In this document: positions 37,555 through 54,172 of the stretch, piece after piece
How the letters are laid out: the number at the start of each line of letters is the position of its first letter
How positions within the stretch are numbered: position 1 is the first letter of the stretch
From: Thermoleophilaceae bacterium
GTDB taxonomy: Bacteria; Actinomycetota; Thermoleophilia; Solirubrobacterales; Thermoleophilaceae
DNA length: 64,000 nt
Assembly: GCA_036389835.1 (NCBI GenBank)
Contig: DASVWC010000017.1
Location: forward strand, 10,877-74,876
Direction of reading: 5' to 3'
Program-made: the position numbers and the translations under genes
Notes under the pieces: generated by a model
Seen by the model: the letters and a program-made list of their open reading frames with translations, nothing else
The model's database searches: none
Told to the model about the DNA's origin: nothing

Positions 37555-37555
37555 G

Positions 37556-38917: not shown

Positions 38918-38947
38918 CGGCGGTCAGTCTCGCAGGACGGGTGGCGG

Positions 38948-39415
38948 TCAGTCGGGCCGGCGCCGCGCGAACCGGCGCAGCGCGCCGCCCGCCACGGCCA
39001 TTCCGGATCCGAGCGCGGCCGCGGCCGCCGCGACGAAGCCCGTGAACGGCAGGTTCCCGCCGGAGCCGCCTCCGGAGCCGCCTCCGGAGCCGCCCCCCGA
39101 GCCGCCGCCGGAACCGCCGCCCGACCCGCCGCCCGAACCAACGCCGCCGCCGTCGTCCGGGTCGCCGCCACCGCTGTCCACGTCCGCGATCCCCTGGCCG
39201 TCGACCGTCGGGACCGTGTCGACCGATCCCGGGCCCCCGGGGCCGGCCACGAAGCCGGGGTCGCCGCCGGAGCCGGGGCCGCCCGTGGGCGAGCTGAAGC
39301 TCAGGTCGCCCGCCCCCGCCTGCGCGAGGAACAGGTGTGCCGCACTGGTCATCTCGACTAGGTCGCCGAAGTCCGTGACCACCGGCGGCACGTAGCTACG
39401 CCGCACCCCGTCCAT
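38948..39415 (-). CDS. Lasso-RiPP-leader-containing protein with a Gly/Ser-rich spacer and a C-terminal LPXTG-type sorting signal
   Basis: 155 aa. The ATG at 39415 is preceded by an AAGGTG SD. Residues 8-24, YVPPVVTDFGDLVEMTS, match Y-x2-P-x-[LV]-x3-G-x5-T-x. The C-terminus is NLPFTG, about 20 hydrophobic residues, then RRFARRRPD. Confidence 0.75.
   Translation of the reverse strand: MDGVRRSYVPPVVTDFGDLVEMTSAAHLFLAQAGAGDLSFSSPTGGPGSGGDPGFVAGPGGPGSVDTVPTVDGQGIADVDSGGGDPDDGGGVGSGGGSGGGSGGGSGGGSGGGSGGGSGGNLPFTGFVAAAAAALGSGMAVAGGALRRFARRRPD
39056..39154 (-). repeat. In-frame 12-nt tandem repeat encoding (GGGS)n
   Basis: ggagccgcc-type units are repeated about 7 times and translate to GSGGGSGGGSGGGSGGGSGGGSGGGSGG, directly before LPFTG. 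Confidence 0.85.
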
Positions 39416-39483
39416 GTCACCTTAGACTCTACGCCAGAGCAGGCGAAATCGCGCCGAGTCCTCAGTAAGCTGCCGCCCGCGCG

Positions 39484-40581
39484 ATGACCGACACCGGGGC
39501 CATACCGCTGTCGGTCGTGATCCCCGCCTACAACCGGGAGACGATGATCGCGCGCGCCGTGGCCAGCGCCTGGGGCCAGCACCCGCGCCCGCCCGCCGAG
39601 GTGATCGTGGTGGACGACTGCTCCACCGACCGCAGCGGCGCCGTGGCGGCCGAGCTCGGCGCGCGGGTGATCCGCCACGAGCAGAACCGCGGCCTGGGCG
39701 CCTCGCGCAACACGGGCATCCGCGCGGCCACGCAGCCGTGGATCGCCCTGCTCGACTCCGACGACGAGTGGCTACCGCACCTCCTCGACGCGCTCTGGCG
39801 GCTGCGCGACGACCACATTCTCGTCGGCCTCGCGTCGCTCAACTGCGGGGACGACCCGGCGTACGACCGCTTCGCGGGCCCCACCGGGCGCCGGCCGGTC
39901 GTCCTCGAGTCGCCGGCCCGGCTCCTCTACCCGGAGAACTACATCGCCGCCAGCGGCACGATGGTGCGCGCCGACGCGGTGGCGGCGGTCGGCGGCTACC
40001 GCGAGGACCTCAGCCACGGCGAGGACCTCGACCTGTGGCTGCGCGTGCTCGAGCACGGCAGCGGCATCGTCGCGCCGATGGTGGGCGTGATCTACCACCT
40101 GCACGCGGGCCAGGTCACCCGCGACCAGGTCACGATGGCGGCCCGGCAGCTCGACGTCCTGCGCTCGTACTCGGACAGGAGCTGGTGGTCGTCGGCCCGC
40201 GTGGAGGCGTGGCGGGCCGGCAGCGCCTGGGACGAGCTGCGCCGCGGCGACGGGCGCACGGTCGCGCGCTGCGCCGCGTTCATCGCCCGCCACCCGTCGC
40301 GGATCGCCGGGCTCGGCGGCCTGCTCCTGAGGCGCTGGCGCCTGCGCCGGCGGAGCGCCTCGGTCACGCGCGCCGGGACGCCGACGGTCGCCGTCCTCGC
40401 GGGCCGGCGGGTTCCGCTCGCCGGCCTCGTCTCGCTCGTGCGGCGCCCGCCGGGGGTCGCCGTGGTGGACTCGCCGGCGCAGCGCGCGCTGGTGCGCGCG
40501 CTCGGCATCCGGCCGGCCCGGCAGTCCGAGCTGCCCGACCTGGTGCGGCGGCCGTGGTCTCCGGACGGGACGCTCTCGTGA
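39484..40581 (+). CDS. Glycosyltransferase family 2
   Basis: 365 aa with LSVVIPAYNRE, VIVVDDCSTD and LLDSDDEW. Confidence 0.85.
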   Translation: MTDTGAIPLSVVIPAYNRETMIARAVASAWGQHPRPPAEVIVVDDCSTDRSGAVAAELGARVIRHEQNRGLGASRNTGIRAATQPWIALLDSDDEWLPHLLDALWRLRDDHILVGLASLNCGDDPAYDRFAGPTGRRPVVLESPARLLYPENYIAASGTMVRADAVAAVGGYREDLSHGEDLDLWLRVLEHGSGIVAPMVGVIYHLHAGQVTRDQVTMAARQLDVLRSYSDRSWWSSARVEAWRAGSAWDELRRGDGRTVARCAAFIARHPSRIAGLGGLLLRRWRLRRRSASVTRAGTPTVAVLAGRRVPLAGLVSLVRRPPGVAVVDSPAQRALVRALGIRPARQSELPDLVRRPWSPDGTLS

Positions 40582-41822
40582 GCCGGCTGCGCTGCGCCTA
40601 CCTGGTCGCCCGCCACCCCGCGGTGACCCAGACCTTCATCTCGCACGAGATCCGCGCCCTCCGCGCGCGCGGCGCCGAGATCGCGACGGCCTCGATCCGC
40701 CGCTCGGCCCGCGGCGAGGCGCTCTCCCCGGCGACCGAGCGCGAGCGGCGCGAGACCTACGCGCTGCTGCCCACCTCTCCCTGGCGCCTCCTGCGCGCGC
40801 ACGCCGCCGCCTTCGCCCACTCCCCGGGCGCCTACCTGCACACGCTCGCCGCCGCGCTGTGGATGGGGCCCGCCGGCGCCCGCAACCGGCTCTGGCAGGT
40901 CTTCTACTTCGCGGAGACGATGCTGCTCTGGCACTGGCTCGCGCGCGAGGACATCCGCCACGTGCACGTGCACTTCGCGAACGTGGCGAGCGACGTGGCG
41001 ATGCTGTGCACGCGCTTCGGCAACCGCTCGGCCCGCGACGGCCGCCGCTGGAGCTGGAGCCTGACGGTGCACGGGCCGACCGAGCTGCTCGACATGAAGG
41101 CGCACAAGCTCGAGCGCAAGGTCCGCTCGGCCGACGCCGTGATCTGCACCAGCGACTTCGTGCGCAGCCAGCTCCTCAGCCTCGTCCCGAGCCCGCAGGG
41201 GACCGAGCTGCTCACGCTGCGCTGCGGCATCGACCGCTCGATCTTCCACCCGGCCGCCGAGCGCGACCCGAACGACCGCGTCGAGATCCTGAACGTCGCC
41301 GGGATGTCCGCCCGCAAGGGCCATCGCTTCCTGCTCGAGGCGCTGGAGACCCTCCACGCCCGCGGAGTGGACTTCCACGCCCGGCTGGTGGGCGACGGCC
41401 CCGAGCGCGACGGGCTCGAGGCCCTCGTCCGCGAGCGCGGGCTCGCGGACCGGGTCGAGTTCATGGGCGCGCTCGGCGAGCACGTCGTGCCCGACCTCTA
41501 CCGCCAGGCCGACGTCTTCTGCCTGCCGTCGTTCGCGGAGGGGGTGCCGACCGTGCTCATGGAGGCGATGGCCACCGGGCTGCCGGTGGTCGCGACGCAC
41601 ATCATGGGGGTGCCGGAGCTGGTCCGGGATGGCAGGACCGGCCTCGTGGTGCCGCCCGCCCGGGCCGACGCCCTCGCCGACGCCCTCGAGGCGCTCGCCC
41701 GCGATCCGGAGCTGCGGCGCAGGCTGGGCGACGCCGCCCGCGAGTGCGTGACCTCGGAGTACGACCTGAATCGCGCGGCGGAGGCCCTCGAGGCCGTCCT
41801 GGCTCGGCTCGCCGAGCGCTGA
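40578..41822 (+). CDS. Glycosyltransferase family 4 (GT-B)
   Basis: The GTG at 40578 overlaps the previous stop (GTGA). The 414-aa protein has AGMSARKGH and PSFAEGVPTVLMEAMATGLPVVAT. Confidence 0.85.
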   Translation: MSRLRCAYLVARHPAVTQTFISHEIRALRARGAEIATASIRRSARGEALSPATERERRETYALLPTSPWRLLRAHAAAFAHSPGAYLHTLAAALWMGPAGARNRLWQVFYFAETMLLWHWLAREDIRHVHVHFANVASDVAMLCTRFGNRSARDGRRWSWSLTVHGPTELLDMKAHKLERKVRSADAVICTSDFVRSQLLSLVPSPQGTELLTLRCGIDRSIFHPAAERDPNDRVEILNVAGMSARKGHRFLLEALETLHARGVDFHARLVGDGPERDGLEALVRERGLADRVEFMGALGEHVVPDLYRQADVFCLPSFAEGVPTVLMEAMATGLPVVATHIMGVPELVRDGRTGLVVPPARADALADALEALARDPELRRRLGDAARECVTSEYDLNRAAEALEAVLARLAER

Positions 41823-41876
41823 GCGGCACGCTTGCAACCGGTGGCGCGCGCCCATGCGCTGTGCTCCAATAACGCG

Positions 41877-42578
41877 GTGACAGGCACCCTGACGCCGGAG
41901 AGCGACCTCGTCCGCGCGGCGACGGCCCCGCCGCTGGCGCTCGACGGGATCGTCAAGCGCTGGCCCGGCGCCCCGCCCGTGCTCGAGGGCGTGAGCCTCA
42001 GGCTCGAGCCGGGCCAGGCCGTCGCGATCTGCGGGCGCAACGGGGCCGGCAAGACCACGCTGCTGCGGATCGCGGCCGGGCTCTTCGGCCCCGACCAGGG
42101 CAGCGTCCGCCTCGACGGCCTCGACCCCGAGCACGACCGGACCGAGTTCCAGCGCCGGCTCGGCTTCCTGTCCGCCGGCAACAGCGGCCTCTACGCCCGG
42201 CTCAAGCCCGAGCATCACCTCGAGCTGTGGTCGCGGCTGGCGCTCGTGCCGAAGCGCCGGCGCGAGGCCGCGATCGCCGGCGCGGTCCGCGCCTTCGAGC
42301 TCGACCCGCTCTGCGGGAAGCGCGTCGACCGCCTCTCGATGGGCCAGCGGCAGCGGCTCCGCCTCGCGCTCGCGTTCCTGCACGAGCCGACCGTCGTCCT
42401 GCTGGACGAGCCGGGCACGAGCCTCGACGACGAGGGCATCGCGATGATCGGGGCCGCGCTCGAGCGCCTCAAGTCGCGCGGCGGCGCCGCCGTCGTTTGC
42501 CTGCCCTCCGGCTGGGAGGCCGTCCCCGCGGTCGACGCGGGCTTCGTCCTCGCGAACGGCCGCCTGGAGCCGGCGTGA
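41877..42578 (+). CDS. ABC transporter ATP-binding protein
   Basis: The Walker A is GRNGAGKTT, the signature is LSMGQRQRL and the Walker B is VVLLDEP. The start is uncertain: GTG 41877 or TTG 41832. Confidence 0.85.
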   Translation: MTGTLTPESDLVRAATAPPLALDGIVKRWPGAPPVLEGVSLRLEPGQAVAICGRNGAGKTTLLRIAAGLFGPDQGSVRLDGLDPEHDRTEFQRRLGFLSAGNSGLYARLKPEHHLELWSRLALVPKRRREAAIAGAVRAFELDPLCGKRVDRLSMGQRQRLRLALAFLHEPTVVLLDEPGTSLDDEGIAMIGAALERLKSRGGAAVVCLPSGWEAVPAVDAGFVLANGRLEPA

Positions 42579-43387
42579 GGTCGGCCGCGGCACTCGCCGG
42601 CGCGGCCGGCGCCATCTGCAAGCGCGACCTGCTCGTCCTGCTCAGCTACCGCACCCGCACGTTCACGATCGTCTTCGGGACGGCGTTCAGCCTCACGCTC
42701 TTCTACTACGTCTCCCGTCTCGTGTCCTCGCCGCGGATCGGCTCGCCGGACGACTACTACGCGTTCGTCGTGGTCGGGCTCGTGATCTTCGGCCTCGTCA
42801 GCTCCACGCTCTCCGCGCCGGTCACGACCCTGCGCGCGGAGCTCCAGGCCGGGACGTTCGAGCGGATGGTGCTCTCGCCCTTCGGCCCCGTCCGGTCGAT
42901 CGCCTCGCTGCTGCTGTTCCCGCTGATCCAGGCGGTCGTGCTGGGGGTCCTGTCGCTCGCCTTCGCCGCGCTCGCGTTCGGGCTCGACGTGCGCTGGTCC
43001 ACGGCCGCGCTGGTCGTGCCGGTCGGGGCCCTCGCTGCGGGCGCGTTCGCGCCGTTCGGGCTGCTGATGACCGCGGCCGCCGTGCTCTTCAAGCAGACCA
43101 GCGCCGGCGCCACCTTCATCATCACCGGGATCACGCTGCTGGCGGGCGTGTACTTCCCGGTCGAGCTGCTGCCGGGCTGGATCCGCTGGGCGTCCGAGGT
43201 GCAGCCGTTCACGCCGGCCGTCGACGTGCTGCGCAACGTGCTCGTCGGCACGCCGCTGCGCAACCCCGCCTGGGAGGACCTCGTCAAGCTCGCGGGCTTC
43301 GCGCTGGCGCTGCTGCCGGTGTCCGCGCTGACGCTGCGCGCGGCCGTCGCTCGCAGCCGCCGGACCGGCACGATCATCGAGTACTGA
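42575..43387 (+). CDS. ABC-2 type transporter permease
   Basis: The GTG at 42575 overlaps the ATPase stop (GTGA). The 270-aa protein has 6 TM helices and the typical ABC-2 region FERMVLSPFGP. Confidence 0.85.
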   Translation: MRSAAALAGAAGAICKRDLLVLLSYRTRTFTIVFGTAFSLTLFYYVSRLVSSPRIGSPDDYYAFVVVGLVIFGLVSSTLSAPVTTLRAELQAGTFERMVLSPFGPVRSIASLLLFPLIQAVVLGVLSLAFAALAFGLDVRWSTAALVVPVGALAAGAFAPFGLLMTAAAVLFKQTSAGATFIITGITLLAGVYFPVELLPGWIRWASEVQPFTPAVDVLRNVLVGTPLRNPAWEDLVKLAGFALALLPVSALTLRAAVARSRRTGTIIEY

Positions 43388-43695
43388 TGGCCGGCTCTCC
43401 TACACCGGGGGACTCGCTCCTGAACGCCCGCGTGCGCGTGCCCGAGCACGTCGTCTACCGCGACTTCGGCGACGAGACGGTGATCCTCAACCTCGACAGC
43501 GGCATGTACCACGGCCTCAACCACACGGCCGCCGCGATGCTCTCCACGCTGGGCGAGAGCGAGTCGGTGGCCGCGGCGATCGACCGGCTCGTCGGCGAGC
43601 TCGGCCAGCCGCGGGAGGTGATCCAGCCCGACGTGCTGGACCTCTGCCACGCACTCGCCGACCGCGGGCTGATCGAGCACGATGGCGGCGACTGA
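43387..43695 (+). CDS. PqqD-family RiPP recognition element (lasso B1)
   Basis: 102 aa with VVYRDFGDETVILNLDSGMYHGLNHTAAAML...LCHALADRGLI. The ATG overlaps the permease stop (TGATG). Confidence 0.85.
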   Translation: MAGSPTPGDSLLNARVRVPEHVVYRDFGDETVILNLDSGMYHGLNHTAAAMLSTLGESESVAAAIDRLVGELGQPREVIQPDVLDLCHALADRGLIEHDGGD

Positions 43696-44662
43696 GCCCG
43701 AGGCCGGCCGGCCCGAGCGCCGCCGCGCGTACGCCTTCGGGCTCGACCTCGACCTCTCGTTCCCGGCGCCCGGCCTGCCGGAGGCGAGCGGCGCGACCGG
43801 CGGGCGCCCCGCGCGCGCCGACCTGGTGGAGCCCGGTGCGATCGACCGCGACTGGCCCGCCGGAGAGGCCGAGGAGGTGCTCGCCGAGCGCTTCGACGAC
43901 GGCGCGGTGGCGCGCACGATCCACGCGCACCCCGAGGCTGGCTACCGGCTCTACGCCCGCCACTTCGGCCTCGCACGCCTGTCGCCGGACGGCGCGCGCA
44001 TCGCCTGCTCGCCGCCCGACGTCGAGCCCTGGAGCTGGCAGCGCTTCCTCGTGGGCCGGATCCTGCCGTGGGCGGCGGTGCTGCGCGGGCTCGAGGCGTT
44101 CCACGCGAGCGCGGTCGAGACCGGCGGCCGCGCCGTGGCGTTCGTGGGCGCGACCGGCGCGGGCAAGACCTCGCTCGCGATCCAGCTCGTGGGCCGCGGC
44201 GCGAGCTTCCTGACCGACGACGTGCTCGCACTCGAGCGCCGCGGCGGCGTGCTCTGGGCGCACCCCGGGGCGGGCATCGCGAGCGTGCGGCCGGCCGAGC
44301 GCGAGACGATCTCCGGCCCGATCTGGGAGCGCCTCGGCTCGGTGCTCGGCGAGAGCGGCAAGACGTACCTGGAGGTTCCGCGCCGCGACGGCCCGGTGCC
44401 GCTCGCGGCGGTGTACTACCTGCGCCCGGGCGGCGACGCCGCGATCGAGCCGTTCGAGCGCCCGGACCCGCGCCTGCTGCTCGCGAGCACCTTCGTGCTC
44501 GGCGTCCGGACCCCGGAGCGGCTCGCCAACCAGCTCGACGTCTGCTCCGCGCTCGCCCGGACCGTCCCCGTGTTCTGGCTCAGGGTGGACGCCGGCGAGG
44601 GCTCGGCGCGGCTCGCCGCCGCCGTCGACGACCACGTGCGGGCGCTGGAGCCGGTCGCGTGA
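43682..44662 (+). CDS. HPr-kinase-related serine kinase (lasso-precursor kinase type)
   Basis: 326 aa with HASAVETGGRAVAFVGATGAGKTSLAIQLVGRGASFLTDDV, which is an HprK C-terminal-domain P-loop. It overlaps the PqqD gene by 14 nt. Confidence 0.8.
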   Translation: MAATEPEAGRPERRRAYAFGLDLDLSFPAPGLPEASGATGGRPARADLVEPGAIDRDWPAGEAEEVLAERFDDGAVARTIHAHPEAGYRLYARHFGLARLSPDGARIACSPPDVEPWSWQRFLVGRILPWAAVLRGLEAFHASAVETGGRAVAFVGATGAGKTSLAIQLVGRGASFLTDDVLALERRGGVLWAHPGAGIASVRPAERETISGPIWERLGSVLGESGKTYLEVPRRDGPVPLAAVYYLRPGGDAAIEPFERPDPRLLLASTFVLGVRTPERLANQLDVCSALARTVPVFWLRVDAGEGSARLAAAVDDHVRALEPVA

Positions 44663-45057
44663 GGCCGACGCCCGCGAACGTCGCGCTCGCCGCCGAGGTG
44701 GTGGCCTCGTACGTCCGCGCGCGGCGGAAGCTGCGGCACGCGGACCTGCGCGTCGCGCTCGCGGACCTGCGCGCGGTGGACTCGCCGCGGCTGCGGCCGC
44801 CCGCCGATCCGATCGACGGCGGGCGCCGGCTCGGCCGCGCGGTCGCGCGCACGCTCGCGCTGCTTCCCGGCGACACCCGCTGCCTGACCCAGTCGCTCGT
44901 GCTCACGCGACTGCTCGCGGCCCGCGGCATGGAGTCGCGGCTCGTGATCGGCGTCCGGCCCGGCGAGCGCTTCGCCGCGCACGCCTGGGTCGAGCACGAC
45001 GGCGTCCCGCTCCTGCCGCCCGGCGCGGACCACTTCGAGGAGCTCGTGACGCTCTGA
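44659..45057 (+). CDS. Lasso peptide leader peptidase B2 (transglutaminase-like Cys protease)
   Basis: The GTG at 44659 overlaps the kinase stop (GTGA). The 132-aa protein has Cys (CLTQSLVL), His (AHAWVE) and Asp (HDG) in the canonical order. Confidence 0.85.
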   Translation: MRPTPANVALAAEVVASYVRARRKLRHADLRVALADLRAVDSPRLRPPADPIDGGRRLGRAVARTLALLPGDTRCLTQSLVLTRLLAARGMESRLVIGVRPGERFAAHAWVEHDGVPLLPPGADHFEELVTL

Positions 45058-45110
45058 CCGCCGCGTTCGCAGGGCGCTACGGACCGGAGGGTCCCGACGC
45101 GGAGGCCCTG

Positions 45111-46832
45111 GTGCGGTCGCTGCGCCGCGACGGTGCGGCCGGCGCGGCGCGGGCCGGGCCGCTGGCGATCGCCTCGACGAGCGGCGTGCACGCGCCGGCA
45201 GGCGGCCCGCTCTGCGTAGTGGACGGCCGTCTCGACGCCGGCCCGCTGGCCCGCGCCGCCGGGCTCGACCCCGCCCTCCCCGCCGCGGAGCTGGTCGCGG
45301 CGGCCTACGCGCGCCTCGGGCCCGCGGCGCTCGACCGCCTCGAGGGGGAGTTCGCGCTGGCCGTCTGGGACGAGCGCGCCGGCCGCGGCGCGCTCGCCCG
45401 CGACCGCCTCGGCGCGCGCCCGGTCTTCCTCGCCGAGCACGCCGGCGCGCTGCTGTTCGCCTCCGAGGTGCGCAACCTGCTCGCGCTGCTGCCGTCGCGC
45501 CCGGCGCCCGACGAGACGGCGATGGCCCACTGGCTGGCGCGCGCGCCGCTCCCGCGCGGACGCACGCTCTACAGCGGCATCCGGCCGCTCCCCGGCGGGC
45601 ACGCGCTCGAGCTGGCCGGCGGCCGCTGGCGCGAGCGGCGCGTGTGGCGCCCGCGCCACGCCGCCGCGCGGCGGCTCGGCGAGCGCGAGGCCGCCGAAGC
45701 CGTGCGCGCCTGCCTCGGCGCCGCCGTCGAGCGCAGCCTGCGCGGCGCCGAGCGCCCGGCGATCCTCCTGAGCGGCGGGCTCGACTCGGCCGCGGTCGCC
45801 GCGGCCGCGAGCGCCGCCGGCACGCGCCCGGCCGCGTACTCGGCGCTGTTCCCCGAGCACCCGGAGGTGGACGAGTCGCAGCGGATCCGGTCGGTGCGCG
45901 AGCGGCTCGGCCTCGACGGCGTCGAGGCCGACCTGGGCGGCGGCAGCGCGATCGAGCGCGCTCGCGAGTTCACGCGCGAGTGGGAGCTGCCGTCGGTCTC
46001 CCCGAACCGCTTCGTCTGGGCCCCGCTCCTGGCCCGGGCGCGCGACGACGGCGTCGACGTCGTGCTCGACGGGGCGGGCGGCGACGAGCTGTTCGGCTGC
46101 GCGCGCTACCTGGTCGCCGACGAGCTGCGCCGCGGCGCCCCGCTCGCGGCCGTGCGGGTCGCCCGCCGGCTGCCGGGCATGGGCTCGAGCCCGCCGCCGC
46201 GCTGGATCGCGCGCGCGCTGGCGACCTACGGGCTGCGCGCCGCGCTCCCCCACCGGCTGCACGAGCGGCTGCGCGCCGCGCGCGGCCGCTCGGGCGGACC
46301 GGACTGGCTCGCGGCCGGGGTGACCCACGACCGCTGGAGCTGGAAGCGCGAGCCCGGCCCGCGCTGGTGGGCGCAGCTCGTGCACCTGCTGACGAGCGAC
46401 GAGCTGGGCGTGGCCGACCAGCTCAGGCGCGAGGCGGCGATCCACGGGCTCGAGCTGAGGCACCCGCTGCGCGACCCGGCCCTGATCGACCTCGTGCTCG
46501 AGCTGCCGCCCGAGCTCGGGTTCGACCCGGACCTCGACCGGCCGCTGCTGCGCCGCGCGCTGGCGGGCGAGCTGCCCGACGCCGTCCTGCGCGAGGTCCG
46601 CAAGCCCGCCTTCAACCCGCTGCTGGAGGCCGCGCTGGCGGGCCCTGACCGCCGGGGACTGGCGGCCCTGCTGGCCGCTCCGCCCCCGGAGCTGACCGCC
46701 CTCGTGAGGCCCGGATCCGGCGCCTTCGAGCCATTCGAGGCCGGAAACCGGGCGCCGGGGCGCGCCCTCGAGCTGTGGCGGCTGGTCACGCTCGCGGTCT
46801 GGCTGGACCATCAGGGGGACGGTTCTGCTTGA
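45111..46832 (+). CDS. Lasso peptide macrolactam synthetase C (asparagine-synthetase-like, no Cys nucleophile)
   Basis: The PP-loop is ILLSGGLDSAAV, with DGAGGDELFG also present. The first canonical start is the GTG at 45111. The frame stays open back to a CTG at 45054 that overlaps the B2 stop, and the extra residues TAAFAG mimic the CGIAG N-terminus. Confidence 0.85.
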   Translation: MRSLRRDGAAGAARAGPLAIASTSGVHAPAGGPLCVVDGRLDAGPLARAAGLDPALPAAELVAAAYARLGPAALDRLEGEFALAVWDERAGRGALARDRLGARPVFLAEHAGALLFASEVRNLLALLPSRPAPDETAMAHWLARAPLPRGRTLYSGIRPLPGGHALELAGGRWRERRVWRPRHAAARRLGEREAAEAVRACLGAAVERSLRGAERPAILLSGGLDSAAVAAAASAAGTRPAAYSALFPEHPEVDESQRIRSVRERLGLDGVEADLGGGSAIERAREFTREWELPSVSPNRFVWAPLLARARDDGVDVVLDGAGGDELFGCARYLVADELRRGAPLAAVRVARRLPGMGSSPPPRWIARALATYGLRAALPHRLHERLRAARGRSGGPDWLAAGVTHDRWSWKREPGPRWWAQLVHLLTSDELGVADQLRREAAIHGLELRHPLRDPALIDLVLELPPELGFDPDLDRPLLRRALAGELPDAVLREVRKPAFNPLLEAALAGPDRRGLAALLAAPPPELTALVRPGSGAFEPFEAGNRAPGRALELWRLVTLAVWLDHQGDGSA

Positions 46833-46857
46833 AGAGGGCGTTTCAGATGCGTATATT
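46829..46857 (+). promoter_or_regulatory. Sigma-70-like promoter in front of the precursor gene
   Basis: TTGAAG (46829-46834), a 17-nt spacer, then TATATT (46852-46857). It sits in a locally AT-richer patch of an otherwise very GC-rich region, about 45 nt upstream of the precursor ATG. Confidence 0.45.
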
Positions 46858-46901
46858 CCGGCGATCTACACGGGGGGCTGCTTTGTGAAGGAGGAGGTGT
46901 A

Positions 46902-47036
46902 ATGGACTACGAGACCCCAATCGTTCTTGACTACGGGACGCTTACGGACCTGACCGCGGGTCAGACCGACGGCAACTTCCTGGACGCGGACTTCCCGTCC
47001 GGAACCCCGAAGGACGAGCTCACCTTCTCCAACTAG
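46902..47036 (+). CDS. Lasso peptide precursor (44 aa; not in the ORF track)
   Basis: The translation is MDYETPIVLDYGTLTDLTA|GQTDGNFLDADFPSGTPKDELTFSN. The strong SD GAAGGAGGAGGTG ends 2 nt before the ATG. The leader motif is Y3-P6-V8-G12-T18 with Thr at the penultimate leader position. The core has Gly1 and Asp9. Confidence 0.8.
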   Translation: MDYETPIVLDYGTLTDLTAGQTDGNFLDADFPSGTPKDELTFSN

Positions 47037-47045
47037 CCCGACCGC

Positions 47046-47071
47046 GGTGCGGCCCGTGAGGCGGCCGCACC
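47046..47071 (+). promoter_or_regulatory. 9-bp perfect hairpin immediately after the precursor stop
   Basis: ggtgcggcc (47046-47054), an 8-nt loop, then ggccgcacc (47063-47071). No U-tract follows. It sequesters the GTG at 47047, the candidate start of the next gene. Confidence 0.5.
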
Positions 47072-48966
47072 ATGGCCGATCGACGCTCGACGCCGCCGTC
47101 GAGCCCGCGGTCGCCCTGGCCGGCTGCGCCGAGCGGCGCGCGGAGCTGCGCGGCGCGGTGCGCCACGCCCTGTCGCGCGCGGACCTCACGCGCCTGGCCG
47201 CCCGGCTCGCGAGCCGCCGCCTGCTGCCGCTGATCGGAACGCGGGCGCTCGAGGCGGCCGGCGACGTCTGCCCGCCCGAGTTCGAGGCGACGGTCACGGG
47301 CGCGCTCGGCGTCGCGAGGGCCCGCGCGCTCGCGGTCGAGGCCGCCACCCGTGACGTGACGGCGACCCTCGCCGGGCACGGCATCGCGGCACTGCCGCTC
47401 AAGGGGCCGCTGCTCGCGGAGGCGCTCTACGGCGACACCGGCCTGCGCGAGACCGCCGACGTGGACCTGCTCGTCCCGCGCGAGCGGCTCGCCGGCGCCG
47501 CGGCGCTGCTGCGCCAGGACGGCTACGCGGCTCCCGCCGACCCGCTGCGCGCCGACGGCCTGCCCGACCTTCACCTCGCGCTCGACCATCCCCGGCGGCC
47601 GTCGGTCGAGCTGCACTGGCGCGTCCACTTCTACGAGGACGAGTTCGCGCGCGACATGCTCGAGCGGGCCGAGCCGGGGCCCGACGGGCTGCTGCGCGCG
47701 CGCCCGGCCGACCTGCTCGCGTCGCTGCTGCTGTTCTACGCGCGCGACGGCTTCTACGGGCTGCGGCTGGCGGCCGACATAGGCGCGTGGTGGGACCGCT
47801 ACGGCCGCGCCGGCGACCGGCCGCTCGAGGAGCACGCGCGCCGCTACCCGCGCCTCGCCCCGGCGCTCACCGCGGCGGCGGTCGCCGCCGAGCGCGTGAC
47901 GGGCGCCCCGGCGGCCGGCTGGCTCGGCGGCGCCGCGGCGCACGGCCGCCGGACCGCCATGGCGGCCGGGCTGGCCAACCCCACCTACAGCGGCGAGCGC
48001 GACCAGCTCGCGGCCAACATCTCGCTCGCGGACGCGCTGCTCGCCCCGCCTGGCACGGTCGCCGAGTTCGCCCGGCGCGAGCTGGTGCCGCGCTCGGGCC
48101 CGGCGGCCCCGCACGCCGCCAAGATGCTCGCCCGCTACGGCGCGGCGGCGTGGCGCGTGCGCGGCGGCCGCGAGTGGGCGGCGGGGCCGGCGGGCGGCGG
48201 GCCCGCCGTCGAGCTGCTCGGGCTGCGGCTCGACCGCGTGAGCGAGGCCGAGGCGATCGATCACGTGATCGGCGCCCTGGACGCCGGGCGCGGCGGCTGG
48301 CTGCTCGCGATGAACCTCGACACGCTGCGCCAGTACGCGCGCTCGGAGGAGCTGCCGGCGCTGTTCGAGCGGGCGGACCTGATCGTGGCCGACGGCATGC
48401 CGCTGATCTGGGCGAGCCGCCTGGCGGGGACGCCGCTGCCCGCGCGGGTCGCGGGGTCGGACCTGATCTGGTCGCTCACGGCGGAGGCGGCGCGGAACGG
48501 GCGGTCGGTGTTCCTGCTCGGCGGGGCGCCGGGCGTCTGCGAGCGCGCCGCCGACGCCCTGCGCGCGCGCTCTCCCGGCCTGGCCGTGGCCGGCACCCAC
48601 TCGCCGCCGTACGGCTTCGAGAGCGACGCCGCCGAGCTCGACGCGATCCGCGCGCGCCTGCGCGAGGCGCGCCCCGACGTCGTCTACGTCGGGCTCGGCT
48701 TCCCCAAGCAGGAGCGCCTGATCGCGCAGCTCAGAGACGAGCTGCCGCGCTCCTGGTTCGTGGGCGTGGGCATCTCGTTCAGCTTCGTGACCGGCGACGT
48801 GCCGCGGGCACCCGCCTGGCTCCAGCGGATCGGCCTCGAGTGGGTCCACCGGCTGACGAAGGAGCCGCGGCGGCTGGCGCGCCGCTACCTCGTCGACGAC
48901 CTGCCGTTCGCCGCCCGGCTGGCCGCCCACAGCCTCGCGCGGCGGGCGCGCGGCGGTCGCGGCTAG
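47047..48966 (+). CDS. Fusion protein: NTP_transf_5-type nucleotidyltransferase (N-terminal) plus WecG/TagA/CpsF family GT26 glycosyltransferase (C-terminal)
   Basis: 639 aa. The N-terminal half has LPLKGPLLAEALYGDTGLRETADVDLLV...VELHWRV. The C-terminal half, from about nt 48220, has LLGLRLDRVS...ADGMPLIWASRL...VYVGLGFPKQE...GVGISFSF. The start is uncertain. Confidence 0.8.
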   Translation: MRPVRRPHHGRSTLDAAVEPAVALAGCAERRAELRGAVRHALSRADLTRLAARLASRRLLPLIGTRALEAAGDVCPPEFEATVTGALGVARARALAVEAATRDVTATLAGHGIAALPLKGPLLAEALYGDTGLRETADVDLLVPRERLAGAAALLRQDGYAAPADPLRADGLPDLHLALDHPRRPSVELHWRVHFYEDEFARDMLERAEPGPDGLLRARPADLLASLLLFYARDGFYGLRLAADIGAWWDRYGRAGDRPLEEHARRYPRLAPALTAAAVAAERVTGAPAAGWLGGAAAHGRRTAMAAGLANPTYSGERDQLAANISLADALLAPPGTVAEFARRELVPRSGPAAPHAAKMLARYGAAAWRVRGGREWAAGPAGGGPAVELLGLRLDRVSEAEAIDHVIGALDAGRGGWLLAMNLDTLRQYARSEELPALFERADLIVADGMPLIWASRLAGTPLPARVAGSDLIWSLTAEAARNGRSVFLLGGAPGVCERAADALRARSPGLAVAGTHSPPYGFESDAAELDAIRARLREARPDVVYVGLGFPKQERLIAQLRDELPRSWFVGVGISFSFVTGDVPRAPAWLQRIGLEWVHRLTKEPRRLARRYLVDDLPFAARLAAHSLARRARGGRG

Positions 48967-50360
48967 CGGTCGCGGTCCGGGTCGTCCACGCAGCCCCTGC
49001 CGCGCGGCTGCGCCAGGGCCTGGAGCTTTCGCCACGGGAAGTTCGCGAGCACACCCTGGCTGTCGGGCGACCTGCCCTCGAAGATCTCCACGTACGGGTC
49101 GTAGCCGAGCGGCGTCGGGTCCTCGGCGGCGAACCCGATCTCGGTCGAGGCGTCGGTCACGACCAGGCCGTATCGCTGTATGGCGCGCGCGATCGTGAGC
49201 GCGTAGCGCGACAGCGGGTGGCGCGGGTCGCTCGCGTAGGCGGCGAGGTCGAAGCGCGCCGGGAAGCGGAAGCGGGCGCCCGCCGGGATCGACTGCGGCG
49301 CGCGGCTCGAGCGCTCCGGGTCGGTCCGCTGCGCGGGCCAGCACCAGCCGTCGCGGCCGCCCCTGCCGATCACGACGAGGCCGATCGCGTGCTCCACCGC
49401 GCCGCGGCGCAGCTCCTCGATCCGCTGGAGCCCCGACATCAGCGCGATCGAGGTGGCCGACGCGCCGTACTGCGGGCCCGGCGGATCCACGAAGTGGCCC
49501 TCGTTCTGCGAGACGTGCGGCATCCGGCCGCCGTAGCGGGCGCGCCAGGTGCCGAACAGCGGGTCCTTCGACAGCCCCCAGAACTCCCAGAGCGTGTCCG
49601 TCGCGGGCTGCCAGAGGATCAGGTTCCCGTCGGTGCCCGCGGCCGGTCGCGCGTCGGCGGGCAGCGGGACCGCGTCCCACTGCCGCTGGAGCGCGGGCGC
49701 GCCCTCGGGCGCCGCGACCCGTACCGCCGGCTGGTCCGGACCGACGGTGTAGATCGGCGAGCTGTACTGCGTGGTGCCGATCAGCGCGCCGCGCGGGCGG
49801 CTGCGCACCTGCGAGCGGATCTCCGCGACCATCGCCGCCGAGTTGCCCGCCAGCGGAGCGTTCTTCTTCAGCCGCTTGTTGCGCCAGCCGCCGGGCGAGA
49901 ACGGCTCCGCGACGAGCGTCATCGTGTCGATCCAGGCGCTGCGCTGGCAGGTGAGGCTCGAACCGGACCCCTCGACGATCCCCACGGACACCGCGTGCGG
50001 CCCCGCCGGCACCGACAGGCGCGCGCCGAGCTCGCCGTAGCCCGCTCCCGCGAGGCCCACGAAGCGCTCCACGCCGTCGACCTTGATCGACACGGTGGGC
50101 AGCCCGAAGCAGTCGTTCCCCCGAACGCGCGCGAAGACGTGGACCGACGTGCGCGTGGTGGTCATCACGCCCTCGGCGGCGCTCCCGGCGGCGATGCGCA
50201 GCGCCCGCCCGCTCGAGGCATTCGCATCGGGCTCGACCGCGCCGGGGCCGACCGGGGTGAGCAGCTCGCCCTCGATCGTCACGTCGGCCGCGCCCGCGGG
50301 CGCGGCGAGAAACGCGAAGGCGGCCGCGGCCGTGGCGAGCACGCGGCGCACGTCGGGCAT
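48963..50360 (-). CDS. Secreted protein of unknown function (signal peptide plus beta-sandwich-like N-domain)
   Basis: 465 aa from the ATG at 50360. MPDVRRVLATAAAAFAFLAAPAGAADV looks like a Sec signal with an AXA cleavage site. I recognise no family for the remainder. Confidence 0.65.
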   Translation of the reverse strand: MPDVRRVLATAAAAFAFLAAPAGAADVTIEGELLTPVGPGAVEPDANASSGRALRIAAGSAAEGVMTTTRTSVHVFARVRGNDCFGLPTVSIKVDGVERFVGLAGAGYGELGARLSVPAGPHAVSVGIVEGSGSSLTCQRSAWIDTMTLVAEPFSPGGWRNKRLKKNAPLAGNSAAMVAEIRSQVRSRPRGALIGTTQYSSPIYTVGPDQPAVRVAAPEGAPALQRQWDAVPLPADARPAAGTDGNLILWQPATDTLWEFWGLSKDPLFGTWRARYGGRMPHVSQNEGHFVDPPGPQYGASATSIALMSGLQRIEELRRGAVEHAIGLVVIGRGGRDGWCWPAQRTDPERSSRAPQSIPAGARFRFPARFDLAAYASDPRHPLSRYALTIARAIQRYGLVVTDASTEIGFAAEDPTPLGYDPYVEIFEGRSPDSQGVLANFPWRKLQALAQPRGRGCVDDPDRDR

Positions 50361-50454
50361 CGACTGCACGGTGAAATGGTCGCACTTCCACGCCGGTCGG
50401 CGCGCGGTCGCGCTGCTCCGGCACCCGCGGCCGAACCGGTAGCGTCCGGCAACC

Positions 50455-51969
50455 GTGGCTCGGCGAGCGTCGTATTCCGAAGGCGTGGCGTTCGCGGTGC
50501 TGAGCTTCGCCTCGATCGCGGTCGTCGGGCTGGTCAGCAGCATCTTCGTGGCCCGGGCCTACGGCATCGAGCCGATCGGCGAGCTCGCGATCGCGCTGGC
50601 GCCGTCGCTCGCGCTCGCGACGCTGTCCCAGCTCCGCGAGCAGGCCGCCCTCGTGCGCGAGCTGACCCTGCTCGCGCCGCGCGCGCCCCGGGTGACCGGC
50701 CTGTTCGCCGCGGTCATGGCGTTCTCGTTCGGGCTCACGCTGCTGGTCGCGATCCCCGTGACGGCCGCGACCTGGTTCGTCCTGTCCGGCCCGGTCGGCC
50801 GCGACGACCTGTTCGTCCCGGCGCTCGCGCTGATCGGCATCTACACGCTCGTCGAGAACACCTGCTGGAACCTCGACGTCGTGTTCCAGGCCTTCCGCGC
50901 CGGGCGGCCGCTGTTCTGGGTGCGGCTCGACTACGGCGTGACCTACGTGGCGTACGCGCTCGCCATCAACTTCACGTTCGGCGACGACGTCTGGGGGCTC
51001 GTCGCGGCCGCGGGGCTGTCGATCGCGACGTCGCTGGTGCACCGGCTCGTGCTCGTCCGCCACTTCATGCGCTTCCGGGTCCCGCGCGCGGAGATCCGGG
51101 CCGGCTTCCGGACGCTGCCGGCCCTGGTCCGGTTCGGCGCGAAGGTCGCGCCGGGGCAGATCGCCGACGGCGTCTCGCGCCAGGCGAGCGTCTGGGTCCT
51201 GTCGATCACGAGCTCGGTCGCCGCCGTGGGCGCCTACAACCGGGCCTGGATGCTCGCCACGCGCTTTCTCGAGCTCGGTCACCGGGTGGTCGAGATGCTG
51301 TTCCCGACCCTGGTGGAGCGGCGCGCGAACGGCGACTCCGAGGGCTTCGACCGGGCGTCGATCGACACGGTGCGCTACTGCGTGGCCGGCCTGCTGCTGC
51401 CAGCGGCCGCGGGCGGTGGCGCGGCCGACGGGCTCATGGACCTGTTCGGGGACGGGTTCGACCGCGCCGCGGACGCGCTGGCGCTGCTGCTGCTCGCGCC
51501 CGGCCTCGCCGCCGTCGTCTCGATCCTCACGAGCATCCTGTGGACCGACGACCGGCTCTGGCTGAGCACGATCATCACCTCGGTCCGCGCCGCGCTCACG
51601 GTCGGGCTGACGATCGTGCTCGCGATCGAGTACGGCATCACGGGGGCGGCCGTCGCGATCGTCGCGGCGTACCTGGTCGAGTCGGTCTGGTGCTTCGCCG
51701 TGATGCCGCGGCACTGGTCCACCCCGGTGCGGACGCTGTGGCCCTACCGCGGCATGGCCGCGCTCGCGGCCGGATACGCGGCCGGATTCGCCGCGGCGCG
51801 CAGCGTCGACGCGGCTCTCTACGGGGAGGTCGGCACCGCGTGCGCGGTCGCGGCCGGGGCGGTCGTGTACCTGGCGATCGCGGTCGGCGGCGGGCTCCAG
51901 GAGCGCGATCGCGAGCGGCTGGCGGCGATCCGGGGAAGACGCGCCCAGGCACTGCCGACCGAGGGTTAG
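50455..51969 (+). CDS. MOP-superfamily flippase (second Wzx-type protein)
   Basis: 504 aa with about 12-14 TM helices and the polysaccharide-biosynthesis-protein pattern (FGAKVAPGQIADGVS). Confidence 0.75.
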   Translation: MARRASYSEGVAFAVLSFASIAVVGLVSSIFVARAYGIEPIGELAIALAPSLALATLSQLREQAALVRELTLLAPRAPRVTGLFAAVMAFSFGLTLLVAIPVTAATWFVLSGPVGRDDLFVPALALIGIYTLVENTCWNLDVVFQAFRAGRPLFWVRLDYGVTYVAYALAINFTFGDDVWGLVAAAGLSIATSLVHRLVLVRHFMRFRVPRAEIRAGFRTLPALVRFGAKVAPGQIADGVSRQASVWVLSITSSVAAVGAYNRAWMLATRFLELGHRVVEMLFPTLVERRANGDSEGFDRASIDTVRYCVAGLLLPAAAGGGAADGLMDLFGDGFDRAADALALLLLAPGLAAVVSILTSILWTDDRLWLSTIITSVRAALTVGLTIVLAIEYGITGAAVAIVAAYLVESVWCFAVMPRHWSTPVRTLWPYRGMAALAAGYAAGFAAARSVDAALYGEVGTACAVAAGAVVYLAIAVGGGLQERDRERLAAIRGRRAQALPTEG

Positions 51970-52016
51970 CGCTTTATGCTGGGCCTGTGGCGCCGCGGGC
52001 ACGCAGCCGACCCGAC

Positions 52017-53276
52017 GTGAGCAAGCTCCTGCGCAAGGGCAAGGTCGACGCCCTGCGCGAGGCCCTGCACTACCGCGACCTGGGGGCGGCCGGCAACGGC
52101 GCGGGGCACGACGCCGGCGCGCCCGTGCGCGCCGAGGCGCTCAGGGCGCTGGTGTCGCTCGGCGGCCCGACCGTCCCGGGCGACCTGAGCGCCGCGCTCG
52201 AGGACCCCGACCCGTCGGTGCGGATCGCGGCGATCGACGGCATCGCGGCCATGGGCGCCCCCGTGGCCGGCCAGGCCGAGCAGCTCGTGCGCGCCGCCGT
52301 GGCGCGCGAGGAGGGCGCCGGCGACGTCTCGGCCCGAGCGCTCGACCTGCTGGTGGACTGGGCGGCCCAGGGGGTCGCGGAGATGTTCGTGGAGGCCCTG
52401 CTCGACCCCGGCGCGCCCGAGCCCGACGAGGGCCACGCGGCCAGCCTCGAGCTGCTGTTCGTCACCGACACCCGCGGGGATGGGGCGCGCACGGCGGTCG
52501 CCGACCTGCTCATCGCGCGGCTGCACCAGGCCCCTGACGAGCGCTCGGAGCGGGCGGTCGAGCGCGTGCTGGGCTGGCTCGGGCCGTCGGCGCTCGAGAG
52601 CGTGCTGGCCGAGCTCGAGAGCGGCACTTCCACCCCGGCGCTGCTGCGCGCGGCCGGCTCGCTGGGCGACGCGCGTGCGGTCGCGCCGGTCGTCCAGGGA
52701 CTCGAGAACCCGGATCCGGACGTGCGGGTGGCGGCGGCCACGGCGGCTCGGACGCTCAACCACACCCGCGCCGTCCCGGCGCTGCTCACGGCCACGCAGG
52801 ACGACGAGCAGGCGGTGCGCGACGCCGCCTCGGCGGCGCTCGACCGGATGGGGACGGCGGCGGTGATCGCCGGCCTGGCGACCGTGGTGGACACGCGCCT
52901 GCAGGCGGCGCTGCCGGCGGTCCTCGAGGGCGACGGGGCCGAGCAGCTCGGCTCGCGCGGCGGCGCGGAGCAGCTCGCCGAGGGCCGGGCGGAGCCGGAT
53001 GTGGGGCCGGCGCCGGGCGCGGAGCCGGCGCCGGGCGCGGAGCCGGAGCCGGGCGCGGAGCCGGCGCCGGGCGCGGGGCCGGCGCCGGGCGCGGGGCCGC
53101 AGCCGGCGCAGCAGCCGCAGCCGGCAGCGCCCCAGCCCGTGCGGTCCGGACCCGCCGAGCCGATCCAGCCGACGGTGCCCTCGGCCCTCCCCGCCCAGCC
53201 CGGGCCGGCCCTCCCCGGCCAGCCCCGGCCGCGCCGCGGCGGCCTGCTCGACCGGCTGCTCGGCCGCGACTACTAG
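52017..53276 (+). CDS. HEAT-repeat (PBS-lyase type) protein with a Pro/Ala-rich repetitive tail
   Basis: A GTG at 52017 starts the protein. It contains repeated L.DPDP.VR.AA motifs (EDPDPSVRIAAIDGI, ENPDPDVRVAAATA, DDEQAVRDAASAAL). Only the last about 419 aa of ORF 47787..53276 are real. Confidence 0.7.
   Translation: MSKLLRKGKVDALREALHYRDLGAAGNGAGHDAGAPVRAEALRALVSLGGPTVPGDLSAALEDPDPSVRIAAIDGIAAMGAPVAGQAEQLVRAAVAREEGAGDVSARALDLLVDWAAQGVAEMFVEALLDPGAPEPDEGHAASLELLFVTDTRGDGARTAVADLLIARLHQAPDERSERAVERVLGWLGPSALESVLAELESGTSTPALLRAAGSLGDARAVAPVVQGLENPDPDVRVAAATAARTLNHTRAVPALLTATQDDEQAVRDAASAALDRMGTAAVIAGLATVVDTRLQAALPAVLEGDGAEQLGSRGGAEQLAEGRAEPDVGPAPGAEPAPGAEPEPGAEPAPGAGPAPGAGPQPAQQPQPAAPQPVRSGPAEPIQPTVPSALPAQPGPALPGQPRPRRGGLLDRLLGRDY
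53004..53099 (+). repeat. In-frame 18-nt tandem repeat encoding (EPAPGA)-like units
   Basis: The unit gagccggcgccgggcgcg occurs about 5 times with small variants. It translates to GPAPGAEPAPGAEPEPGAEPAPGAGPAPGAGP. Confidence 0.8.
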
Positions 53277-54172
53277 CCGCTCGGCTCGACCACGTTCGAC
53301 GGGTCCGGCTTACCGGCGGCCGGCGCCTGGCTGTAGTCGCCGAACGGGCCGTCGCGCTCCGCGATCGCCGCGCCCACGCCCTCGGCCTGCGCCAGCTCGA
53401 TCCAGCGCTTCGCGTCCGGCGTGTTGCGCATCAGGCCGTCCAGGATCGGCCCGAGCACCTGCGTCGAGCCGACGCCCATGTTCTCGTAGGCGTGGTTGAC
53501 GACGAGCTTCATCGCCGCGAGCTGCGACAGCGGGACCGACGCGAGCCGCCCGGCCAGCTCCGCCACCTCGGCCTCGAGCCGCTCGAACGGCACCGACACG
53601 TTGACGAGCCCGACCTCCGCGGCCTCGGCGCCCGAGAGCGGCTGGCCGGTCAGCGCGTGCCACTTCACCCGCGCCAGCCCGAGCCGGTAGATCCACATCC
53701 CGGTCAGGTAGCAGCCCCACATGCGCGCGTACGGCGTTCCGATGCGCGCGTCGTCGGAGACGACGACGAGGTCCGCGCAGAGGGCCATGTCGCTGCCGCC
53801 GCCCACGCACCAGCCGTGCACCTGCGCGATCACCGGCTTCGGCGAGCGCCAGAGCGACATGATCTTCGGCACCGGCCCGGTCGCGGGCGAGGTGCCGAGC
53901 ATGAAGTCCTTGCCGGGGTCCCACTCGCCGCCGGTGGTGAGCTCCTCGTCCCAGTGGTGGAAGCCGCCGCCGAAGTCGAAGCCGGCGCAGAACGAGCGCC
54001 CGGCGCCGCGCAGCACGATCACCTTGACCGCGTGCTCGCGCACCGCGCGGTGCACCGCCGCCTCGATCTCGTCGGGCATCGGCGGCACGATCGTGTTGAG
54101 GGTGTCGGGGCGGTTCAGCGTGATCGTCGCGATCGCGCCGTCGGCCTCGTAGAGCAGGGTCTCGTAGTCCAT
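53273..54172 (-). CDS. Enoyl-CoA hydratase/isomerase (crotonase) family protein
   Basis: 299 aa with ITLNRPDTLNT, LRGAGRSFCAGFD and HGWCVGGGSDMAL. Confidence 0.85.
   Translation of the reverse strand: MDYETLLYEADGAIATITLNRPDTLNTIVPPMPDEIEAAVHRAVREHAVKVIVLRGAGRSFCAGFDFGGGFHHWDEELTTGGEWDPGKDFMLGTSPATGPVPKIMSLWRSPKPVIAQVHGWCVGGGSDMALCADLVVVSDDARIGTPYARMWGCYLTGMWIYRLGLARVKWHALTGQPLSGAEAAEVGLVNVSVPFERLEAEVAELAGRLASVPLSQLAAMKLVVNHAYENMGVGSTQVLGPILDGLMRNTPDAKRWIELAQAEGVGAAIAERDGPFGDYSQAPAAGKPDPSNVVEPSG

Follow-up and report, generated by a model that had tools for sequence, protein, structure and literature searches.

A predicted class II lasso peptide precursor with a conserved sub-terminal serine in a Thermoleophilaceae operon

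The lasso peptide kinases PadeK, ThcoK, SyanK and PsmK (poly)phosphorylate a strictly C-terminal, extremely conserved serine (PMC9266682, PMC6993621), and BsfK, like LppK of the linear polyphosphorylated peptides (LPPs), phosphorylates Ser3 of the core peptide (PMC10368454, PMC13381572). LPP precursors are 35–200 amino acids (aa) long and are co-localised with lasso clusters inside polysaccharide loci (PMC13381572). The present analysis concerns an open reading frame (ORF) at positions 46902–47036 of a 64-kb stretch of a Thermoleophilaceae contig (DASVWC010000017.1, positions 10,877–74,876; the whole stretch is called the window). Judged by sequence comparison, this ORF very probably encodes the precursor (A) of a class II lasso peptide, matured by the scheme proposed below. 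By analogy, it would work like the phosphorylated and glycosylated lasso peptides paeninodin and pseudomycoidin.

As in the paeninodin type (PadeA, ThcoA, SyanA), split B1 and B2 proteins are combined in the window with an Asn-synthase-like cyclase and an HprK-like kinase carrying the H-K-D-D residues (PMC9266682, PMC5067487). The precursor gene directly follows the cyclase gene, which is the usual order (padeCAB1B2D, PMC5067487), and a nine-residue ring on Asp9 (predicted in the window), an acidic tail and a conserved Ser in a terminal or near-terminal position are also shared. However, this Ser is strictly C-terminal in paeninodin-type precursors, whereas zero to eight residues follow it in the window family, here a single Asn. 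Paeninodins are reportedly restricted to Bacillota, and their recognition element for peptides that are made on the ribosome and modified after translation (RiPP recognition element, RRE) prefers a WxxP leader (PMC13381572), whereas the window peptide belongs to Thermoleophilia and has a YxxP leader. For these three reasons, it was not regarded as a strict member of the paeninodin family. The exporter, of the ABC-2 two-component type, is also unlike that of the paeninodin type.

Pseudomycoidin (PsmA/PsmK/PsmN) resembles the window in combining a kinase with a nucleoside triphosphate (NTP) transferase of the PF14907 type (hereafter NT). PsmN is a stand-alone protein, whereas the NT domain of the window is fused to a TagA/WecG domain. 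[quoted passage not shown] Its position among Wzy, GT2, GT4 and flippase genes, beside a longer leader-bearing protein, mirrors that of paeninodin-like clusters in capsule loci of Bacilli (PMC13381572). LPPs, however, depend on a SpI-type signal peptidase and have no cyclase, whereas the window cluster has both a cyclase and B2, and its precursor is like that of a true lasso peptide.

The precursor gene and its parts are as follows.

46902–47036, plus strand: precursor gene (A), ATG start, 44 codons plus TAG, from the ORF listing and translation
46902–46958, plus strand: leader peptide, residues 1–19, MDYETPIVLDYGTLTDLTA, with Y3-x-x-P6-x-V8-x3-G12-x5-T18 and Thr at −2
46959–47033, plus strand: core peptide, 25 aa, GQTDGNFLDADFPSGTPKDELTFSN, delimited by family conservation
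46959–46961, plus strand: codon of core Gly1
46983–46985, plus strand: codon of core Asp9 (Asp28 of the precursor), the predicted ring acceptor
47028–47030, plus strand: codon of the conserved core Ser24 (Ser43 of the precursor)
47031–47033, plus strand: codon of the extra C-terminal Asn (Asn44)

The ORF translates exactly as given in the preliminary description, to the 44-aa peptide MDYETPIVLDYGTLTDLTAGQTDGNFLDADFPSGTPKDELTFSN, and lies directly after the cyclase gene as stated there, starting 69 nt past the stop (46832) of this Asn-synthase-type gene. The same description had called the ORF unlisted. This applies to its own ORF track only, since the gene caller of a public collection had called the 44-aa gene, without annotation, on the source contig (ENA contig k141_46039, 146 kb, from a Thermoleophilaceae metagenome-assembled genome, MAG). 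The NCBIfam model NF033521 (lasso_leader_L3) matched residues 3–21 with 21.6 bits (curated cut-off 19, E 1.6e-4), and the leader residues named earlier (Y3, P6, V8, G12 and T18) were all found at canonical spacing. No Cys is present in the core, and B1, B2 and the Asn-synthase-like cyclase (PF05402, PF13471/NF033537 and PF00733) are encoded in one operon with the precursor. Every property of a class II lasso precursor that can be checked in a sequence was thus found.

A single-sequence search of a database of 5.8 billion proteins yielded three homologues of 44 aa (E 1e-14 to 1e-18), and 14 further loci were obtained by a DNA-level scan of metagenomes. A profile built on 20 members matched 795 proteins at E ≤ 1; the best 120 of these all had E ≤ 4e-20 and were either unnamed or labelled 'hypothetical protein'. 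The window peptide therewith represents a large unannotated family of soil Thermoleophilia in which the presumed acceptor Ser is sub-terminal. Comparison of the precursor with six homologues gave synonymous divergences (dS) of 0.75–1.25 and ratios of nonsynonymous to synonymous divergence (dN/dS) of 0.17–0.50, which at dS near 1 indicates purifying selection on the protein. The lack of a conserved small ORF at the homologous position had been set beforehand as a refuting check; a small ORF with the leader motif was present in 20 related loci, 60–400 nt past the cyclase gene.

DNA of 75% GC is rich in short ORFs, and the ORF might accordingly be an unexpressed chance frame. The GC content of the ORF is 0.61 (within a trough of 0.59–0.61), lower than in the window (0.75) and in the flanking genes (about 0.8). 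At codon positions 1, 2 and 3, the values are 0.56, 0.40 and 0.84, so the coding signature of the genome is kept, and the earlier remark that G and C dominate third positions despite lower local GC proved correct. This pattern, a strong Shine-Dalgarno sequence, the retained synteny, the NF033521 score above its cut-off, the 795 homologues and a dN/dS well below 1 at dS near 1 all speak against a chance frame, a reading that is refuted by conservation and can be given practically no weight.

For the limits of leader and ring, 129 distinct family sequences were counted, with positions numbered from the residue after the leader-ending T-x. In an alignment of 20 relatives, Y3, P6, D10, G12, T18 and A19 were invariant. 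The leader ended in T-x in all 113 relatives that could be parsed, and in TA in 111 of them. Core position 1 was Gly in 113 sequences, Ala in 13 and Gln in three, while Gly5, Asp9, Phe12 and Thr16 were each found in 129/129. High conservation was also observed at P17 (128/129), K18 (123/129), T22 (126/129), F23 (127/129) and S24 (127/129), and free variation at positions 3, 4 and 11 (Thr22, Asp23 and Asp30 of the window peptide). The segment predicted to form the ring was nine residues long in every member. The pattern at position 1, the invariant Asp9 and the constant length of this segment together support cleavage between Ala19 and Gly20 and a Gly1–Asp9 ring. Predicted cleavage by B2 after Ala19, followed by formation of this macrolactam, is therefore the supported reading. 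The Gly start and Asp9 of the preliminary description were recovered, as was its acidic core of 25 aa, with five Asp/Glu against one Lys and an isoelectric point of 4.05. For the dehydrated core, a monoisotopic mass of 2654.177 Da is predicted. The bulky Phe residues of the tail may act as steric plugs, as the preliminary description had suggested.

Cleavage after Asp23, with Thr22 at −2, would instead give the core GNFLDADFPSGTPKDELTFSN and a seven-residue Gly1–Asp7 ring, a size within the known range (PMC6993621). Among the four sequences found first, residue 20 is G, G, A and Q, with T22-D23-G24 and D30 identical, which had suggested this alternative. In the wider relatives, however, Thr22 is replaced by K, S, H, A and others, Asp23 is variable, and Asp30 is A, S, T or E in most sequences, whereas Asp28 is kept in all 129; in addition, the canonical G-x5-T-x spacing indicates Thr18. 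Since Thr22 and Asp30 vary and Asp28 is invariant, the Gly24–Asp30 ring was rejected, and this cleavage site is regarded as very improbable.

The three members with Gln at core position 1 read LTA followed by QQ. The corresponding ORFs are located at 1103–1237 in locus L001, 422–556 in L002 (P0003), 808–939 in L083 and 293–424 in L092. To our knowledge, there is no precedent for a lasso macrolactam on Gln1, which would be unusual.

The window peptide ends in TFSN. Ser24 was the C-terminal residue in only 8 of the 129 sequences; in others it was followed by TP (52), GP (25), N (14), D (10), S (10) or longer tails of up to eight residues. A Ser-Asn or Ser-Asp ending occurred in 24 independent sequences. 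Because it recurs across the family, this ending is a real state and not a sequencing error. PsmA differs in this respect, as it ends in Ser and the Asn ending in the database was a sequencing error (PMC6993621). The window peptide is not peculiar in having a sub-terminal Ser, which is the rule in its large family. Ser24 is near-invariant but seldom terminal, and core position 3 carries Ser or Thr in only 35% of the 129 relatives (Thr3 in the window peptide), so the family fits neither type of lasso kinase. The caution expressed earlier over the kinase target was justified, since Ser43 is not C-terminal, unlike the Ser of PadeA, ThcoA, SyanA and PsmA (PMC9266682, PMC6993621).

By analogy, Ser43 in the (D/E)LTFS motif would be the most likely phospho-acceptor, despite the Asn44 that follows it. 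No other hydroxyl residue coincides with the terminal Ser found in the classical type, some members of the family end in this residue, like PadeA and PsmA (PMC9266682), and the surrounding motif recurs in LPXTG proteins, the second class of substrate described below. If true, a sub-terminal acceptor would represent a third regiochemistry of lasso kinases, alongside those directed at the C-terminal Ser and at Ser3.

Different tailoring of the same precursor was considered possible, though rather unlikely. The kinase might act on Thr22 (core Thr3), Thr41 or Thr35, or Asn44 might be trimmed so that Ser43 becomes exposed. BsfK phosphorylates core Ser3, accepts the S3T substitution and has a precursor ending in Asp (PMC10368454), LppK likewise acts on Ser3 (PMC13381572), and the window peptide has Thr at this position; moreover, core Thr16 is invariant and core Thr22 nearly so. 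The variable residues past Ser24 (none, N, D, S, G, TP, GP or longer) would be expected of a dispensable or removable extension, and removal either before or after phosphorylation is possible. With only 35% Ser or Thr, however, core position 3 cannot be the conserved site of the family, and the operon showed no carboxypeptidase gene. More than 100 residues lie past the Ser of DL(T/S)FS in the LPXTG proteins, which rules out a need for a free carboxylate in their case.

The Bsf system of Bradymonas sediminis (BsfA/BsfK) does resemble the window in being a lasso cluster with kinase and NT, in a precursor that does not end in Ser (but in Asp), and in the spacing of the kinase residues (PMC10368454). 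It differs in that BsfK modifies Ser3 of the ring and the Bsf leader has Ile at −2, whereas the window peptide has Thr at −2 and an unconserved core position 3. Because of Thr18 at −2 (Ile/Val in the Bsf type) and the low share of Ser or Thr at position 3, the peptide was not assigned to the Bsf type.

The genes of the operon are tightly packed on the plus strand in the order ABC-B1-K-B2-C-A-NT/WecG.

41841–42578, plus strand: ABC-2 type exporter, ATPase
42575–43387, plus strand: ABC-2 type exporter, permease
43387–43695, plus strand: B1, a PqqD-like RRE (PF05402, E 3e-13)
43682–44662, plus strand: HprK-like peptide kinase (K; PF07475, E 8e-6, below the gathering score)
44659–45057, plus strand: leader peptidase B2, transglutaminase-like Cys protease (PF13471, E 7e-21; NF033537, 73 bits against a cut-off of 33)
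45111–46832, plus strand: lasso cyclase (C), Asn-synthase-like (PF00733, E 1e-40; GATase_7)
47047–48966, plus strand: NTP_transf_5 and WecG/TagA fusion (PF14907, E 6e-32; PF03808, E 4e-60)

The GTG start of B2 overlaps the stop codon of the kinase gene. With HEX8742439.1 of a Thermoleophilaceae MAG, the cyclase shares 100% identity, and its SGGxDS motif was invariant in 34 homologues; it reached 163 bits with the lasso cyclase model NF033535, under the cut-off of that model. Aligned to HPrK (1knx), the kinase shows H141, K162 (in GAGKT) and the D179-D180 motif, with a spacing equal to that of H148, K169 and D186-D187 in BsfK (PMC10368454). Comparison with solved structures gave weak matches to HPrK and to the P-loop of shikimate kinase (E 0.01–0.9), which served to align motifs but not to assign family membership. 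Several related loci have a second kinase or B1; for the window, a tblastn search for such paralogues gave self-hits only.

On the source contig, the last gene of the operon had been called as one gene of 639 aa. Its product carries a PsmN-like NTP_transf_5 domain at aa 45–282 and a WecG/TagA glycosyltransferase domain at aa 443–614, the latter matching the TagA structure 7mpk (E 4e-32). In locus L083 (1048–2965), the NT and WecG domains are adjacent but in different frames, and in L087, L090, L095, L096 and L012, WecG homologues lie a few kb downstream of the precursor; in L005, the homologue lies about 5.5 kb downstream on the opposite strand. The acceptor on which TagA/WecG enzymes place ManNAc(A) is GlcNAc-pyrophosphoryl-undecaprenol. 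Hypothetically, a Ser-(poly)phosphate-sugar would resemble this acceptor. PsmN is needed for the hexoses on the phospho-Ser of pseudomycoidin, and whether it is itself the transferase or requires a host glycosyltransferase was not decided (PMC6993621); in a heterologous host, LppN showed no activity, and the need for an unidentified partner was proposed (PMC13381572). The fusion is possibly a 'Rosetta stone' for the missing partner of PsmN and LppN, and the neighbourhood of the precursor therefore bears on the question of what such NTP transferases need. A literature search on lasso clusters with WecG found nothing relevant.

Three putative expression signals accompany the precursor gene.

46829–46857, plus strand: promoter-like TTGAAG-17 nt-TATATT, sigma-70-like by consensus match (1 found, 0.0 expected in shuffles)
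46887–46899, plus strand: Shine-Dalgarno sequence GAAGGAGGAGGTG, 4–7 nt upstream of the ATG
47039–47078, plus strand: GC-rich hairpin, −27.2 kcal/mol, beginning 3 nt past the stop codon and overlapping the GTG start (47047) of the next gene

The promoter-like site lies in the 69-nt spacer between the cyclase and precursor genes (GC 0.55), overlapping the cyclase stop codon, and may function as a promoter. The sequence AGGAGGAGG (46889–46897) ends 4 nt before the ATG and occurs twice in the window, the other copy being at 59566–59574 on the minus strand, and AAGGAGG was counted four times against 2.4 expected. The Shine-Dalgarno sequence had been described as the window's best; it is one of the strongest there, while 'best' is not strictly provable. 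For the hairpin, a z-score of −3.1 was obtained with dinucleotide shuffles (51 nt) and −0.4 with mononucleotide shuffles (60-nt window). Since the z-score is model-dependent, positional conservation was relied on instead: of the 16 loci tested, most have a strong hairpin past the precursor stop codon, in the same place but unrelated in sequence. The hairpin may act as an attenuator or transcript stabiliser. Together, the promoter-like site, the strong Shine-Dalgarno sequence and the hairpin would fit an output of precursor above that of the enzymes.

In a subgroup of the family with precursors of 50 aa ending in TFSTP, a conserved GTACTTTTTCAGGTCTT-like element was observed about 60–80 nt upstream of the precursor start (L087 ~6905–6920, L089 ~4949–4964, L090 ~4178–4193 and L096 ~6900–6917). 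A near-identical ATATGCCGGTCTCC...GGAGACCGGCATAT hairpin lies past the stop codon in the same subgroup. Both elements may be regulatory.

The following scheme of maturation draws on established lasso biochemistry and family conservation. B1 would bind the leader, and the HprK-like kinase would phosphorylate the linear precursor in a leader-dependent manner, most likely at Ser43. B2 would then cut after Ala19, and the cyclase would join the amine of Gly20 to the side chain of Asp28, giving a nine-residue macrolactam threaded by the 16-residue loop and tail (2654.18 Da). Following the precedent of PsmN-dependent hexoses on the phospho-Ser (PMC6993621), the PsmN-like NT domain and the fused TagA/WecG domain would place one or more sugars on the phosphate, and the ABC-2 transporter would export the product.

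Several points weigh against this scheme. Three members have Gln at core position 1, for which no precedent is known, and the match of the kinase to PF07475 is below the gathering score. Core Thr16 is no less invariant than Ser24, and Thr22 comes close, which makes the assignment of the phosphorylation site dependent on analogy and on the shared motif; moreover, the characterised kinases of the C-terminal type all act on a truly terminal Ser (PMC9266682). The WecG domain may belong to the neighbouring polysaccharide locus, perhaps as its first gene, and not to the lasso pathway, and the significance of the hairpin hinges on the shuffle model. The closed ring, its threading, the phosphate and the sugars are each predictions.

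The question of a second substrate is raised by a longer gene upstream of the operon, found by a motif scan of the window and called as a gene on the source contig.

38948–39415, minus strand: 155-aa protein with a lasso-type leader and LPFTG

This protein consists of the leader SYVPPVVTDFGDLVEMTSA, DLSFSSP 13 residues further on, a Gly-rich linker and a sorting signal of the sortase type (LPFTG, a hydrophobic segment and a basic tail). GC at the three codon positions of its gene is 0.77, 0.67 and 0.91, which is coding-like. An exhaustive HMMER search with its first 50 residues yielded 21 representative clusters, and a further member was found in locus L004 (16737–17588, minus strand); the family has 23 members. 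In 22 of the 23, the leader is followed by 12–15 residues, D(L/M)(S/T)FS and (S/G/A)P. LPxTG was present in 17; the remainder were mostly cut off or incomplete at the C-terminus. The profile of the lasso precursors matched the leaders of this family with E 1e-5 to 1e-9. None of the 23 proteins has Asp or Glu at positions 7–9 after T-x, and they are consequently not lasso substrates. An N-terminal Sec signal was not evident in these proteins. No convincing sortase gene was found in the window by a search for the TLxTC motif. A literature search on lasso-type leaders with LPXTG proteins, and on lasso peptides of Thermoleophilia, found nothing relevant.

On a 136-kb contig (L101), a gene of this family (10001–10450) is divergent from an operon of ABC-ABC2-PqqD-HprK-like-B2-NTP_transf_5-GT2, with neither a cyclase nor a lasso precursor within 20 kb. 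The enzymes are 57% (B1), 44% (K), 66% (B2) and 53% (NT) identical to those of the window. The same divergent arrangement was observed on a second contig, and several others with members of this family are too short to show the gene context. The arrangement suggests a pathway derived from lasso biosynthesis that works without a cyclase on proteins anchored in the cell wall. Such a pathway would be the actinobacterial counterpart of the Bacillota LPPs, with B2 replacing the SpI peptidase and with sortase substrates; an LPXTG-anchored, LPP-like partner served by B2, as in the window, is a type absent from the published account of LPPs (PMC13381572).

These enzymes without a cyclase, and the documented linear phosphorylated peptides made by lasso-like machinery (PMC13381572), would also accord with maturation of the window precursor as a linear phospho(glyco)peptide, the cyclase being inactive on it or serving another substrate. 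Yet the cyclase gene is 69 nt upstream in the same operon with an intact SGGxDS motif, and Gly or Ala at position 1 and Asp9 are kept in 126–129 of the 129 sequences, for which a linear product offers no rationale. Where the LPXTG proteins have no cyclase partner, an acidic residue at positions 7–9 is missing as well. A linear product of the window precursor is therefore considered improbable, and a lasso peptide is preferred.

Of the evidence at hand, the LPXTG family argues most strongly for recognition by the enzymes of the leader together with an internal (D/E)L(T/S)FS serine, and the 155-aa protein is a possible second substrate of B1, K, B2 and NT of the window. Only tentatively, it can be proposed that these four enzymes of Thermoleophilia mark a shared (D/E)L(T/S)FS Ser on both the lasso peptide and the LPXTG proteins, where (poly)phospho-Ser would prime the glycan of the locus. 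The modified Ser would mimic the undecaprenyl-pyrophosphate primer, the NT domain would attach the first sugar and the fused TagA/WecG domain would extend it, so that peptide or protein would become covalently linked through phosphate to the glycan of the surrounding polysaccharide locus. If this were true, the missing partner of PsmN and LppN would be identified, and the role of phosphorylated lasso peptides would be in the cell envelope rather than antibiotic. The same leader and Ser motif on LPXTG proteins, within a polysaccharide locus, thus bear on the open question of the purpose of these peptides. A genome-mined lasso precursor of this sort would probably be flagged by antiSMASH or RODEO; the NT-WecG fusion and the LPXTG proteins are more surprising than the peptide alone.

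A locus of the polysaccharide type surrounds the lasso operon. Upstream (35168–41822), a weak Wzz-like match, a Wzy_C ligase, GT2 and GT4 were found, and downstream (48963–53312), an unannotated minus-strand gene of 465 aa and a Polysacc_synt flippase. The ORF at 40859–41872 was rejected as a gene, being an out-of-frame artefact over the GT4 gene. Among the called genes in the scanned interval 35168–53312, there was no signal-peptidase Pfam match. In related loci, WecG, Wzz/ParA-like, epimerase and sugar-transferase genes were observed beside the lasso clusters.

Elsewhere in the window, an Asn-synthase-like match at 3885–4694 (minus strand) is 35% identical to residues 59–334 of the cyclase; it possibly represents an ordinary asparagine synthase or another amidotransferase. 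In the sister clusters of Solirubrobacterales/Thermoleophilia (L003–L013), other precursor families follow the cyclase gene, with sequences such as ...GGYSVGISNPAAGCKSNP and ...HHVPPDPQPSSPSGP. Two kinase paralogues are frequent in these clusters, two B1 genes occur in some, and their precursors have Ser-x-Pro-like tails, not Ser endings.

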